Assembly (NCBI GenBank): GCA_018304545.1
Contig: JAGVVZ010000002.1
Span: 16,999-80,998 of the forward strand
DNA length: 64,000 nucleotides
Origin: Candidatus Aenigmatarchaeota archaeon
GTDB lineage: Archaea > Aenigmatarchaeota > Aenigmatarchaeia > CG10238-14
Direction of reading: 5' to 3'
Notes under the pieces: generated by a model
Told to the model about the DNA's origin: nothing
Database searches by the model: none
What the model saw: the letters and a program-made list of their open reading frames with translations, nothing else
Program-made: the position numbers and the translations under genes
Shown: positions 35,631 through 63,229 of the stretch, piece by piece
How positions within the stretch are numbered: position 1 is the stretch's first letter
Layout of the letters: every line of letters starts with the position of its first letter

Positions 35631-35734
35631 CGCCCTGGTCGGGATTTGAACCCGAGTCCTAGGAGTGACAGTCCTAGATTCTACAACATCATGAAATAAT
35701 AATGTTTTGATAGGCCAGGCTACACCACCAGGGC
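35631..35734 (-). tRNA. tRNA-Asp(GTC) with a ~30-nt insertion between D-arm and anticodon stem (non-canonical intron; exact boundaries unresolved)
   Basis: Minus-strand read: GCCCTGG-TG-GTGTAGCCTGGCCTATCA-[aaaacattattatttcatgatgttgtagaatc]-TAGGA-CTGTCAC-TCCTA-GGAC-TCGGG-TTCAAAT-CCCGA-CCAGGGC-G. Good acceptor, anticodon arm (GUC) and T-arm. Confidence 0.6.
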
Positions 35735-35820: not shown

Positions 35821-35938
35821 GAGTTGGCAACGTCCTGAACTTCCCACCCAAAGGCAGTACAACTCAGATCACCGAAAAACTTAACTTCCGTGTTCGAAAT
35901 GGGAACGGGTGTTTCCTTTTCGTTTTGGTCGCCAACTC
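35821..35938 (-). rRNA. rrf: 5S ribosomal RNA (standalone, not linked to 16S/23S in this window)
   Basis: Minus-strand sequence GAGTTGGCGACC...CACCCGTTCCCATTTCGAACACGGAAGTTAAG...GTTGCCAACTC. It carries the universally conserved 5S loop-C/helix-III block and complementary termini (helix I). Confidence 0.85.
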
Positions 35939-36057: not shown

Positions 36058-36173
36058 TCCCCCCGGCCGGAGTTGAACCAGCAACATCACGGTATCTATT
36101 GAGCCCATGCTGGTGACAAACACATAATGTGCTCGTCTACAGCCGTGCGCTCTGCCAGTTGAGCTACAGGGGG
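36058..36173 (-). tRNA. tRNA-Tyr(GTA) with a ~43-nt canonical (37/38) intron
   Basis: CCCCCTG-TA-GCTC-AACTGGCA-GAGC-G-CACGG-CTGTAG[intron acgagcac...caatagat]A-CCGTG-ATGTT-GCTGG-TTCAACT-CCGGC-CGGGGGG-A; acceptor has one G-U pair. Confidence 0.8.
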
Positions 36174-41111: not shown

Positions 41112-42977
41112 TCATATAAATATTGGTCTCTGAGATAATTTTTTTGGTAAAGATAAAGATTTTAATGGTTTGTCCTTCATTTCGTTTTTAATCAACTTTA
41201 CCAAATCGTCCATCTTCATTTTAGTTTCTTTGCTTTTTTCTTTTCTTATTCTAACATTAAATTCTTTACTTTCTTTTTCTCTCTTTCCAATTACTAAAAT
41301 AAATGGAATCCACTCCATTTCAGAATTTCTAATTTTTTTATCTATACTTTCAACTCTGTCATCAATATCAACTCTAATATTATTCAATTCTAACTCCTTA
41401 GCGATTTCCTCACAATATCCAATAAAGTCGCTATTTATTGGGCATAATCTTACCTGTATAGGAGACAACCAAACGGGTAATTCTGGGTTATTACCTTTTT
41501 TAGATTCCAAATATGCTTTCTCCAAAATAGCGTAGAACACTCTTTCTAAACTCCCTGATGGAGAACAGTGTAAAACCAAAGGGTATTTTGATTTACCATC
41601 TTCATCAGTATATTTCATATTAAATCTTTCTCCGTTTTCATGATCTATTTGAACCGTTGAAAGAGCTGAAGCTTTGTCCATAGAATCCACAAAATTAAAT
41701 TCAAATTTGGGATCAAAATATGCATATCTAAAGTTCCACATTTCAATTAATACAGGTTTATTAACAAGTTCGACTAGATTGATAACAAAGTTTTTGTTTT
41801 CTTTCCAAAAATCTTTAGTGAATCTAATAGCAACTTCAAAATCATCCACGCTCAAACCAAGATCATTCAAGGCCTCTATAGATAATTTATATTGATTTGT
41901 ATATTCTTTCTTTGCTTGTTCCAAATCTTTACATAGGGTATGCATATCAGGCATCGTAAATGCCCTCAATCTTCTTAATCCGACTAACTCTCCTGCCTTT
42001 TCTAATCTGAATGAATATCTAGTTAATTCATAAATTTTCATTGGTAGGTCTTTGTATGATATCTGAGATGCCGCTGCAGTTAAAAATTGACCAAAACAAG
42101 CGCTGAATCTAAGGAAGAATTTTTTCTTTGCTGATTCTACTGTATATTGTCTTGCGGGGAATCTATTCAAATAACTTTTTAGTGCTGGATGATCATAATC
42201 ATACATTATAGGTGTTTCTACTTCCATCCCGCCATAATTGATTATTTTTTGTGTTACCCACATTTCCAACAAACTTTTCATTAATCTGCCTTTAGGTAAA
42301 AATCTAAAATTACCAGGATCACTGCCTGGTTCATAATCTACTAATTGTAAAGCTTTCATCAATTTTACATGTGCGGGAACTTCAGAAACAGCTCTTACTT
42401 TGGCATATTCGTAATTGAAAAATTTCTCAAGATTTTTGTGTTTCTTAAAATCAAATTTCTTCGCATCTACCAAACTACCGTCCGGCTTTAATATAAACCA
42501 TTCTGAAATGACTTTTTCTTCTTGTTTTAATGCCTGCGAAACTTCTCCGTCATCCTCTCTAACACTGTCAGAAGAAAATACTTTAAACTGTTCTGCCATG
42601 GGGTGTGCTTTAATTTTAATTGAAAATTGTTTATTCCAACCAAATGGTGATCTATATGTCTCGATACCGATTTCTTTCATGAAAATTTCCATTTTTTTGA
42701 GTAAATCCAAAGCATCGGAAGGCTTAGCCAAATTACTACTTAAATGAGCATAAGGATGAATCAAAACTTTATTAACTTTTAGATTATCCAAACTTGATTT
42801 TATTTCTTTTATTGCAGATTTAATAATTTTTTCATTATCATCTTTTTCTATAGAAACGAACAACACAGCTAAATCATCAAATTTTACTTTCTTTTTTTCC
42901 GCATTCTCGGCTATTGAGATTTCCTTTTCTATCGGTTCATACTCAAAATAATCTGCGTGGTGTTGTATTACTCTCAT
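41112..42977 (-). CDS. thrS: Threonyl-tRNA synthetase (archaeal type with N-terminal editing domain)
   Basis: Class II motif 2 FRLEKAGELVGLRRLRAFTMPDMHTLC (R-x-E...GL-R-R-FT..D-H), 621 aa, C-terminal anticodon-binding domain. Confidence 0.75.
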   Translation of the reverse strand: MRVIQHHADYFEYEPIEKEISIAENAEKKKVKFDDLAVLFVSIEKDDNEKIIKSAIKEIKSSLDNLKVNKVLIHPYAHLSSNLAKPSDALDLLKKMEIFMKEIGIETYRSPFGWNKQFSIKIKAHPMAEQFKVFSSDSVREDDGEVSQALKQEEKVISEWFILKPDGSLVDAKKFDFKKHKNLEKFFNYEYAKVRAVSEVPAHVKLMKALQLVDYEPGSDPGNFRFLPKGRLMKSLLEMWVTQKIINYGGMEVETPIMYDYDHPALKSYLNRFPARQYTVESAKKKFFLRFSACFGQFLTAAASQISYKDLPMKIYELTRYSFRLEKAGELVGLRRLRAFTMPDMHTLCKDLEQAKKEYTNQYKLSIEALNDLGLSVDDFEVAIRFTKDFWKENKNFVINLVELVNKPVLIEMWNFRYAYFDPKFEFNFVDSMDKASALSTVQIDHENGERFNMKYTDEDGKSKYPLVLHCSPSGSLERVFYAILEKAYLESKKGNNPELPVWLSPIQVRLCPINSDFIGYCEEIAKELELNNIRVDIDDRVESIDKKIRNSEMEWIPFILVIGKREKESKEFNVRIRKEKSKETKMKMDDLVKLIKNEMKDKPLKSLSLPKKLSQRPIFI

Positions 42978-44495: not shown

Positions 44496-44585
44496 AGCCC
44501 GGTAGTGTAGCGGTCAAGCACACTCTTTTGAGGCTTAAAGTGGGCTTTGGACCCATTAACTCAGGTTCGAATCCTGACCGGGCTA
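44496..44585 (+). tRNA. tRNA-Gln(TTG) with a ~17-nt insertion between position 26 and the anticodon stem (non-canonical intron)
   Basis: AGCCCGG-TA-GTGT-AGCGGTCAA-GCAC-A-[ctcttttgaggcttaaa]-GTGGG-CTTTGGA-CCCAT-TAAC-TCAGG-TTCGAAT-CCTGA-CCGGGCT-A. Confidence 0.65.
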
Positions 44586-54872: not shown

Positions 54873-54955
54873 GGGCTAGTAGATCAACGGTAGATCGCTT
54901 CCTCGGCATTATAACGAATTGGAAGAGGCTTGGGGTTCAAATCCCCACTGGTCCA
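54873..54955 (+). tRNA. tRNA, probably Ala (G3:U70, A73; candidate anticodon GGC) with an ~11-nt insertion in the anticodon arm; encoded CCA follows (54956-54958)
   Basis: GGGCTAG-TA-GATC-AACGGTA-GATC-G-CTTCC-[tcggcattataacgaatt]-GGAAG-AGGCT-TGGGG-TTCAAAT-CCCCA-CTGGTCC-A-CCA. No splice position yields the usual U33, so isotype and intron placement are uncertain. Confidence 0.55.
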
Positions 54956-57494: not shown

Positions 57495-57613
57495 GCGGGA
57501 GTTGCCAAGCCTGGTCAACGGCGCAGGACTGATTAACTCAGTGTGAGACTTAAGTTGACTATAGGATATCCTGTCCCTTAGTGGGTTCGCAGGTTCGAAT
57601 CCTGCCTCCCGCA
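57495..57613 (+). tRNA. Type II (long variable arm) tRNA, Leu-like D-arm, with a ~33-nt insertion in the anticodon arm; anticodon not resolved
   Basis: GCGGGAG-TT-GCC-AAGCCTGGTCAAC-GGC-G-CAGGA-[ctgattaact...ataggata]-TCCTG-TCCCTTAGTGGGTTC-GCAGG-TTCGAAT-CCTGC-CTCCCGC-A. Simple exon joins give GAT/GAA/GGA loops with U37, so splice sites are probably non-canonical. Confidence 0.55.
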
Positions 57614-57658: not shown

Positions 57659-57757
57659 GCAGGGGTACCTGAGTTTGGTTAAAAGGGTAGGGTTCAGGAC
57701 AACGGTGGAAGGCCCTATGGTTTAGTACCTTCGAGAGTTCGAATCTCTCCTCCTGCA
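57659..57757 (+). tRNA. tRNA-Leu(CAG), type II, with a 13-nt intron at or next to position 37/38-38/39
   Basis: GCAGGGG-TA-CCT-GAGTTTGGTTAAA-AGG-G-TAGGG-TTCAGGA[caacggtggaagg]-CCCTA-TGGTTTAGTACCTTC-GAGAG-TTCGAAT-CTCTC-CTCCTGC-A. Mature loop TTCAGGA = U33, CAG, G37, A38. Confidence 0.65.
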
Positions 57758-61870: not shown

Positions 61871-61993
61871 GGGACTGTAGCTCAGACTGGGAGAGCACAT
61901 ACATAAAGTAGCTCAAACGGCTGAAGCCCGTGGTGTCGCTGGAAGATAACGAGTGTATCTCTTATCTGGCGAATTCAAATCCGGCCAGTCCCA
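61871..61993 (+). tRNA. tRNA-Phe(GAA) with two non-canonical introns: 18 nt at 27/28 and 31 nt at 53/54
   Basis: GGGACTG-TA-GCTC-AGACTGGGA-GAGC-A-C[atacataaagtagctcaa]ACGG-CTGAAGC-CCGTG-GTGTC-GCTGG[aagataacgagtgtatctcttatctggcgaa]TTCAAAT-CCGGC-CAGTCCC-A. Removing both insertions gives a 74-nt cloverleaf with perfect stems, U33, GAA, G37. Confidence 0.65.
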
Positions 61994-62680: not shown

Positions 62681-63229
62681 TTGCTTATGTTAGAAGGAGA
62701 GTTAATTGAAAACAGAGTAAACATAAATGACAAAGAAGGACTGGATTTATATGATGAAAATGGGTATGGTAAGCCATTAGAAAATGAATTGGAATTGGCT
62801 CTTGTAGAAGCAGTTTTTTTGTTGAAAAAAGACAAACTAAAAGTTTTCAGCACAAAAAATAATAAAAGAAATTTTTGGAAATATGATGACTTCTATAGAT
62901 ATGCTTCTGAAAAAGAACCTGAGTTCCATCAAAAATTTGTTGTGTATTCAGATTTGAGAGAAAGGGGTTATTTAGTTAAAACTGGTTTTAAATTCGGTGC
63001 CCATTTTCGTGTATATGAAAGAGGTGTTAAATTAAAAAGGGGGCCAAAAGCACCGCATGAACACACAAAATTTGTAGTTCATTCTATTAAAGAAGAGGAT
63101 AGATTCTCTTATCCAGAATTGTCTCGAGCTGCTAGATTAGCACAAAATATAAGAGCGAAAATGGTATGGGCTGTTGTGGATTCTGAAAATGATGTAACAT
63201 ACTATACAATAAATAGATTCACACCATAA
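62681..63229 (+). CDS. endA: tRNA-splicing endonuclease, catalytic (alpha-type) subunit
   Basis: 182 aa; ..YSDLRERGYLVKTGFKFGAHFRVYERG.. and C-terminal ..HTKFVVHSI......SRAARLAQNIRAKMVWAVV.. with catalytic Tyr/His/Lys positions. Confidence 0.85.
   Translation: MLMLEGELIENRVNINDKEGLDLYDENGYGKPLENELELALVEAVFLLKKDKLKVFSTKNNKRNFWKYDDFYRYASEKEPEFHQKFVVYSDLRERGYLVKTGFKFGAHFRVYERGVKLKRGPKAPHEHTKFVVHSIKEEDRFSYPELSRAARLAQNIRAKMVWAVVDSENDVTYYTINRFTP

Follow-up and report, generated by a model that had tools for sequence, protein, structure and literature searches.

The 64-kb window analysed here, the whole stretch of DNA given above (G+C content 31%), carries at 61871-61993 on its forward strand what is very probably a working tRNA-Phe gene, interrupted by two endonuclease-type introns that belong to the relaxed HBh' class. 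Removing 61899-61916 (18 nt) and 61943-61973 (31 nt) from the 123 nt leaves 74 nt, which ARAGORN calls as tRNA-Phe(GAA) and in which every stem pair is formed (21/21). In Sprinzl numbering, with a 9-nt D-loop, the junctions are 27/28 and 53/54. A first-pass annotation had proposed insertions of these lengths at these positions, a perfect 74-nt tRNA-Phe(GAA) upon their removal, and the absence of both from the canonical 37/38 site, with one of them in the T-arm. Its coordinates are exact to the base, the ARAGORN call and the intact stems bear out the product, and 53/54 is indeed a T-arm position. By segment the gene reads GGGACUGUAGCUCAGACUGGGAGAGCAC / AUACAUAAAGUAGCUCAA / ACGGCUGAAGCCCGUGGUGUCGCUGG / AAGAUAACGAGUGUAUCUCUUAUCUGGCGAA / UUCAAAUCCGGCCAGUCCCA, the second and fourth segments being the introns. 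Its parts are as follows.

61871-61898 (+), exon 1, Sprinzl 1-27 (5' strand of the acceptor, then D-arm, A26 and C27), identical in the relative L001
61899-61916 (+), intron 1, 18 nt, at 27/28, A-UAC-AUAAA-GUA-GCUC-AA, placed by geometry and by the relatives L003, L161 and L039
61917-61942 (+), exon 2, Sprinzl 28-53 (what remains of the anticodon arm, with GAA as anticodon, then the variable loop and the 5' strand of the T-stem)
61943-61973 (+), intron 2, 31 nt, at 53/54 in the T-arm, placed by geometry and by covariation in L003, L161, L036 and L040
61974-61993 (+), exon 3, Sprinzl 54-73 (T-loop, the 3' strands of T-stem and acceptor, and A73)

The spliced sequence shows U8, A14, G18G19, G20, U33, G34A35A36, G37, the T-loop UUCAAAU and the discriminator A73, so that on direct reading it has the conserved and identity nucleotides required of a tRNA-Phe. 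The set of Phe identity nucleotides, including a T-loop UUCRANY, a purine at 37 and A73, is as in yeast and archaeal tRNA-Phe. No CCA is encoded, and a T-rich tract follows the gene on its 3' side. In its unspliced form the gene gives no match with ARAGORN and scores 20.5 bits with the Rfam tRNA model, below the gathering score of 29; these misses are a detection limit and no evidence against the gene. A scan for sigma-70 promoters and intrinsic terminators returned nothing above background, with bacterial-type models that are not applicable to archaea.

[quoted passage not shown] For intron 1, the central helix joins intron GCUC (61911-61914) to GAGC in the 3' strand of the D-stem (61893-61896) with 4/4 pairs, the intron helix h' pairs 61900-61902 with 61908-61910 (UAC/GUA, 3 bp), the 5' bulge is AC|A and the 3' strand AA|A. 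For intron 2, intron GGCG (61968-61971) pairs with exon CGCU (61937-61940; C48-U51), again with 4/4 pairs; h' pairs 61944-61949 with 61962-61967 over 6 bp and is lengthened by a GAG/CUC stem, with GG|A as 5' bulge and AA|U as 3' strand. The outer exon helix h has a run of 0 at both introns, AA|A and AA|U still standing at the symmetric distance, and the 3' sites of both lie in 3x3 internal loops in the minimum-energy as well as the constrained folds. Neither intron is therefore a strict hBHBh' motif, there being no outer helix that closes the 3-nt bulge at the 3' site, while both display the H, intact 5' bulge and h' of the relaxed HBh' class (PMC3488258; PMC6379350). Folding the precursor in search of BHB or relaxed motifs, the check proposed at first pass, thus finds HBh' geometry at both junctions. 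Since both introns are BHB introns of this relaxed kind, an endonuclease with relaxed recognition is implied, as had also been suggested there.

The precursor appears to favour this fold. In its Boltzmann ensemble, the pairs of H reach probabilities of 0.99-1.0 for intron 1 and 0.96-0.98 for intron 2, whereas the mature D- and T-stems hardly form (0-0.02); the conformer in which both BHBs are enforced lies at -40.4 kcal/mol, against -42.4 kcal/mol for the minimum free energy. As the H helices dominate and the mature D- and T-stems are essentially absent before splicing, the introns would serve as decoy strands, keeping the precursor in a form that can be cleaved. Nor is the geometry easily obtained by chance. 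There are 20 BHB-like candidate excisions within the 123 nt, and exactly one combination, the proposed pair, restores a cloverleaf. Shuffled introns match the observed geometry at frequencies of 2e-5 for intron 1 and 3e-5 for intron 2, with both matching together in 0 of 200,000 trials, and shifting either intron by -4 to +4 nt abolishes it. These results support the interpretation of both insertions as putative endonuclease-type (BHB) tRNA introns at non-canonical sites.

A comparison with related loci, anchored on the splicing endonuclease gene endA (80 genome loci, 80 metagenome loci and 4 Logan contigs), agrees with this placement. In the window, endA starts 693 bp downstream of the tRNA-Phe gene, with an archaemetzincin gene in between. 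An independent metagenome-assembled genome (MAG), L001, has an identical 123-nt tRNA-Phe gene. L161 and L003, which come from two other assemblies of different studies and whose EndA is 81% and 85% identical, have the two introns in the same places, with loops that differ in sequence; their acceptor pair 4:69 has undergone a compensatory change from A-U to G-C, which, being compensatory, indicates selection on the mature tRNA-Phe. Single sites recur further afield, with a 24-nt intron at 27/28 in L039 and introns of 22 nt and 23 nt at 53/54 in L036 and L040. At 53/54, the central helix tracks the T-stem of its host (CGCU:GGCG, CGCG:CGCG, CGGG:CUCG). In the alignment of five sequences, 100% of the cells are paired, compared with 15-51% in shifted registers, both sides change in 5/8 pairs, and covariation scores 0.75, where shuffles give 0.21 and none of them (0/500) reaches the observed value. 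For intron 1, the alignment of four sequences is likewise 100% paired, against 14-39% when shifted, and the register is the one found in L003, L161 and L039. Over the 34 nt upstream of the tRNA-Phe gene, the window and L161 have almost the same sequence, consistent with a putative conserved promoter region. Elsewhere the comparison yielded no counterpart: the closest metagenome relatives (L081-L086, about 74% EndA identity) have no tRNA-Phe near endA, the Logan contigs for P0008, P0009 and P0004 stop short of the tRNA position or are without tRNA-Phe, and the locus L002 ends 703 bp upstream of endA.

How widespread are such introns? A BHB-constrained solver applied to all loci resolved 70 distinct tRNA-Phe genes with perfect cloverleaves, of which 24 are intronless, 24 hold a single intron, 19 hold two and 3 hold three. 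Together they contain 71 introns of 13-35 nt at 17 positions. By preceding nucleotide, these follow position 9 (15 introns), 26 (15), 30 (9), 22 (4), 53 (4), 27 (3), 46 (3) and others, several D-loop sites holding 8 of the 71. They share a signature, with an A at the start in 59/71 and AA at the end in 49/71. An outer helix of at least 2 bp, as in the strict motif, is present in 46 introns and absent in 25, among them all those at 27/28 and 53/54, for which the run of h is 0 in the relatives too. The canonical 37/38 site accounts for 1/71 solved introns; its true share is higher, because some 20 orthologs with insertions, several of them in the anticodon loop or stem (for instance L067, L068, L070, L093 and L122), could not be resolved under the strict geometry and are uncounted. 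The presence of introns in tRNA-Phe is phylum-wide and very dynamic. Examples of the orthologous genes are:

L036, 4529-4658, tRNA-Phe
L040, 4177-4311, tRNA-Phe
L044, 1472-1606, tRNA-Phe

As a separate observation, some introns at 26/27 and in the D-loop (L046:5797-5914, L049:5835-5930, L054:4303-4413) bear a C-box-like RUGAUGA in their hairpins, for example ACCAATGATGAATTGG and CTGATGAGG; these could be chance occurrences or a protein-binding, kink-turn-like element.

The tRNA-Phe gene and endA are also neighbours well beyond the window. In 97 of 132 judgeable Aenigmatarchaeota loci (73%) among L001-L164, a tRNA-Phe gene is found no more than 1.6 kb upstream of endA and on its strand, and in 44 of those 97 it lies within 150 nt. 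The intron-rich substrate gene is thus in conserved linkage with the gene of its presumed processing enzyme. Around the pair in the window are ribosomal protein genes and a Pelota-like gene. The enzyme gene itself is:

62687-63229 (+), endA, tRNA-splicing endonuclease with domains PF02778 and PF01974, 180 aa from ATG (the list of open reading frames starts it at TTG, 62681)

Its product scores 92.8 bits with PF01974 and 48.7 bits with PF02778, and matches M. jannaschii EndA (1a79) over the full length (E = 1.7e-29), with which it agrees in size and domain layout; an acidic L10-like loop, D-S-E-N-D, is conserved. The closest named homologs all belong to Candidatus Aenigmatarchaeota. The catalytic Tyr110 and His126 are present. 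Between Tyr and His stand 15 residues, ERGVKLKRGPKAPHE, forming a basic L3 loop, where M. jannaschii has 9 and M. kandleri 7; the part VKLKRGPKA aligns residue for residue with IPKKGKRSE of NEQ205 (DIGVIPKKGKRSERE, residues 90-98). The loop is found in 165/165 orthologs and is nearly invariant in the lineage.

The third catalytic residue is a different matter. In the window EndA, the canonical Lys is replaced by Ala (QNIRAKM), at a site assigned from four pairwise alignments to solved structures, a MAFFT alignment and a hidden Markov model alignment, with no gaps nearby; it falls in the HSVRK motif and corresponds to K156 of M. jannaschii, K282 of ARMAN-2 and K287 of A. fulgidus. Across the 165 orthologs, Ala occupies the site 157 times, Thr 5 times and Ser 3 times, and Lys never does. 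The Tyr, the His and the Arg preceding the site are invariant, and the residue that follows it (Thr in 115, Lys in 30) offers no conserved substitute. The window protein thus has the Tyr and His of the Tyr-His-Lys triad without the Lys, and because of this absence we place it among EndA homologs whose active site is non-canonical and do not call it a proven active canonical enzyme. In a wider comparison of 153 Tyr/His-bearing domains from 150 diverse representatives (P0121-P0270), 127 domains combine Lys with a short loop and 7 combine Lys with a long loop, 4 of these, including NEQ205, having a basic loop of the NEQ type. Wherever Ala or Ser occupies the Lys site, the domain carries a long loop of the L3 type, in which a conserved G-x-K stands just ahead of the catalytic His. 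Among the sequences seen was also P0122 (360 aa), a tandem two-domain, alpha'2-like relative of the window EndA, which keeps Tyr and His in both halves, has Ser at the Lys site in both, and bears a GVKLKRGQK loop in its C-terminal half.

From these data, the following course of events can be envisaged. Transcription would yield a 123-nt precursor with two endonuclease-type introns. The decoy strand of each intron would pair with an exon, GCUC with GAGC on the 3' side of the D-stem and GGCG with C48-U51 of the variable loop and T-stem, and each pairing would produce a 4-bp central helix flanked 5' by a 3-nt bulge and the intron hairpin. A splicing endonuclease, most likely the EndA encoded downstream, would dock on this helix-bulge-helix and cut on the 5' side after the second bulge nucleotide and on the 3' side at the symmetry-related position four bp away, within the 3x3 internal loop. 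An RNA ligase would then join the three exons, and the D- and T-stems would form only afterwards. Transcription, cleavage by EndA, ligation and a relaxed recognition permitted by L3 are here predictions from the sequence, and it is in this sense that we consider the adjacent EndA the likely enzyme for both introns.

Several points weigh against this account. Splicing is a prediction from the sequence, and a second copy of tRNA-Phe may lie outside the window. The covariation of intron 1 is weak, with one double change among the four sequences and a score that 124/500 shuffles reach; here the exon strand is the invariant D-stem, which limits the scope for variation, and the placement rests on register specificity, not on covariation. 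The outer helix h is absent from both introns, for which reason cleavage of their 3' sites by classical alpha4 or alpha'2 endonucleases would be unexpected. Finally, the neighbouring EndA has no canonical catalytic Lys, and in ARMAN-2 EndA the corresponding mutant, K282A, is inactive (PMC3488258), so that activity of the neighbouring EndA is not self-evident. Does this favour a different explanation? That the gene is a tRNA-Phe pseudogene, inactivated by its two insertions and backed by an intact second copy elsewhere, could draw on the failure of gene finders to detect it unspliced and on those relatives in which tRNA-Phe near endA is uninterrupted or missing (L004; the L081-L086 clade). We nevertheless think it very unlikely, given 21/21 stem pairs and all conserved tRNA nucleotides intact, a compensatory change in the acceptor stem, intron helices that relatives conserve despite divergent loops, and two insertions that each satisfy the BHB geometry at a chance of about 1e-5. 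DPANN genomes, moreover, are small and their tRNAs usually single-copy. Nothing speaks for an assembly or chimera artefact in this window from a metagenome-type organism, and it is hardly conceivable, with the identical 123-nt gene in the independent MAG L001 and close variants in L003 and L161. As for the exact boundary of intron 1, a junction at 28/29 would give the identical product (GAGCAC|A...AA|ACGG or GAGCACA|U...AAA|CGG); this candidate was rejected and strikes us as highly improbable, as it retains 1/4 H pairs and no intron helix, against 4/4 pairs and a 3-bp h' at 27/28, the register that L003, L161 and L039 share.

More serious is the possibility that the introns are real but removed by another enzyme, a second canonical EndA paralog or a heteromeric partner, with the adjacent Lys-less protein being structural only. 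The two readings of this protein, in which an L3 lysine may serve as a replacement or another catalytic subunit may exist elsewhere, part at this point. With Ala, Thr or Ser at the Lys site in the adjacent EndA and all 165 orthologs, with inactivation of ARMAN-2 EndA by the corresponding Lys-to-Ala exchange, and with heteromers containing a non-catalytic subunit known from N. equitans, Crenarchaeota and M. kandleri, such a division of labour has points in its favour. However, Tyr and His are invariant in 165/165 orthologs, which would be unexpected in a purely structural subunit, and no second EndA-like open reading frame was found in the 64-kb window or, in L001-L080, within the searched distances of +-6 kb or +-3 kb of endA. 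Furthermore, among the diverse representatives, Ala or Ser occurs at the Lys site only together with a long basic loop beside the catalytic His, which suggests compensation rather than decay. We therefore regard another enzyme as unlikely and retain the adjacent EndA as the probable one. How it could work is a bolder question. We offer, tentatively and with more doubt than conviction, a scenario in which, in Aenigmatarchaeota and also in Nanohaloarchaea and some relatives, a conserved L3 lysine (K121 in 'GPK', next to the catalytic His) of a single-subunit splicing endonuclease took the place of the lost Lys. Serving both transition-state stabilisation and the recognition of relaxed motifs, it might have licensed an unusually free gain of introns, seen in 17 positions of one tRNA-Phe that mostly lies directly upstream of endA.

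The tRNA-Phe gene is not alone in being disrupted, as all tRNA or tRNA-like genes seen in the window (7/7) are interrupted. Besides tRNA-Phe, they are:

44496-44585 (+), tRNA-Gln(UUG), a perfect 73 nt after BHB-constrained splicing, called tRNA-Lys(UUU) by ARAGORN
54873-54955 (+), tRNA-Ala-like, anticodon GGC, G3.U70, encoded CCA, in a GC-rich island, with only a sub-threshold 'tmRNA' match in Rfam
35631-35734 (-), tRNA-Asp(GUC)-like, 104 nt, about 30 extra nt between D-loop and anticodon stem, missed by ARAGORN and Rfam
36058-36173 (-), tRNA-Tyr(GUA), intron of about 43 nt at the canonical site, central helix CUGU:AUAG
57495-57613 and 57659-57757 (+), two tandem long-variable-arm tRNAs with 36-nt and 16-nt insertions

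The genes for Phe, Ala-like and Asp-like (3/7) are missed by ARAGORN and by Rfam at the gathering threshold, and ARAGORN mis-assigns Gln as Lys. The 17-nt intron of tRNA-Gln (44522-44538, ACTCTTTTGAGGCTTAA) follows position 25 (25/26) and has the design of intron 1 of tRNA-Phe, namely A, a hairpin, GCUU and AA, and it pairs with the 3' region of the D-stem. The Ala-like gene has an 11-nt insertion, TTATAACGAAT, at 37/38, and its anticodon loop would have a C at position 33 instead of the near-universal U. The Asp-like gene adjoins the 5S rRNA (35822-35936), and for it the solver gives several equally poor intron placements. Apart from the tRNAs, 41810-41900 (-) gave an Rfam match to the C/D-box RNA snoZ165 (27.6 bits, where the gathering score is 90; E = 0.78). 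This and a sub-threshold C/D-box match to snR75 were treated as noise; snoZ165 may be an archaeal C/D small RNA.

What do these observations contribute? Non-canonical, relaxed multi-intron tRNAs were already known from Thermoproteales, as was a link between L3 EndA and disrupted tRNA genes in DPANN; new is the extension to Aenigmatarchaeota, by which the phenomenon reaches another phylum of that superphylum. We found no published report of a Lys-less EndA or of a clade of such endonucleases, and no published description of the linkage between tRNA-Phe and endA, the Lys-less enzyme being the more novel lead. If enzymes of this kind are active, the accepted catalytic model of the family would need revision. 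The locus offers a natural pair of substrate and enzyme encoded side by side, suited to testing the unproven idea that L3 gives broad specificity to single-subunit endonucleases, and the series of 70 genes is a compact data set on intron gain and loss at one locus. On a practical level, the tRNA-Phe gene illustrates concretely why, with standard tools, genomes like this seem to lack part of their tRNAs.

Among known systems, the multi-intron tRNAs of Thermoproteales (Sugahara et al. 2008; Fujishima et al. 2010; review in PMC4033280) are the closest in appearance. There, as here, short BHB-bounded introns occupy non-canonical sites, those in the D-arm and the T-arm among them, many motifs are of a relaxed type (HBh' or hBH), introns come and go quickly between relatives, and three per gene is the reported maximum, the same as in our set; T-arm introns are also mentioned in PMC12397907. 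The first-pass remark that multi-intron tRNAs are known mainly from Thermoproteales and a few other archaea thus named the right kind, although the host here is an uncultured DPANN archaeon of the Candidatus Aenigmatarchaeota and no relative of Thermoproteales. Unlike Thermoproteales, whose enzyme is an (alpha-beta)2 heterotetramer with a Crenarchaea-specific loop, this host presumably uses a single L3 EndA of about 180 aa, and 17 intron positions are spread over one orthologous gene across a phylum. Of the known architectures, alpha4 and alpha'2 enzymes accept the strict motif only, and broad specificity belongs to (alpha-beta)2 enzymes with the Crenarchaea-specific loop and to epsilon2 with the ARMAN loop. 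One further relaxed HBh' intron outside the anticodon loop has been reported, a single one that a loop-less (alpha-beta)2 enzyme processes inefficiently.

The loop of the window EndA has its precedents in DPANN. Hirata 2012 (PMC3488258) described a third loop common to NEQ205 (residues 90-98; K93, K94, K96, R97) and ARMAN-2, which contains the catalytic His and whose run of positive charge was proposed as a second route to broad specificity. In N. equitans, the (alpha-beta)2 enzyme NEQ205/NEQ261 (PMC2761253; Randau et al. 2005) shares the 15-residue basic loop between Tyr and His and cuts relaxed BHBs; unlike the window EndA, however, NEQ205 keeps the catalytic Lys (RKK), is N-terminally truncated and needs a separate structural subunit, and the substrates are joined halves of split tRNAs. 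The epsilon2 EndA of ARMAN-2 (PMC3239211; PMC3488258; PMC12397907), also from DPANN, is broad for non-canonical introns and has an essential loop lysine near the active site, as may also hold in our case. It differs in its three-unit protomer of 395 aa, in its decisive loop, the N-terminal ASL (K161), in the dispensability of the L3-like loop lysines K241 and K244, and in its intact Y236/H251/K282 triad. Nearest of all are the DPANN cases of Kaneta 2018 (PMC5829648), which in the passages concerned names the loop L3 and associates alpha4-type EndA carrying it, in several DPANN phyla, with more disrupted tRNA genes. That the finding falls into this category, the neighbouring EndA having the L3 loop, speaks for the relaxed endonuclease suggested at first pass. 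According to the same passages, the sampling covered Pacearchaeota, Woesearchaeota, Nanohaloarchaea and Mancarchaeum, not Aenigmarchaeota, and the association is non-biochemical; they make no mention of a loss of the catalytic Lys. With these cases the locus described here shares the superphylum, a presumably single-subunit L3 EndA, and tRNA introns that are non-canonical or multiple.

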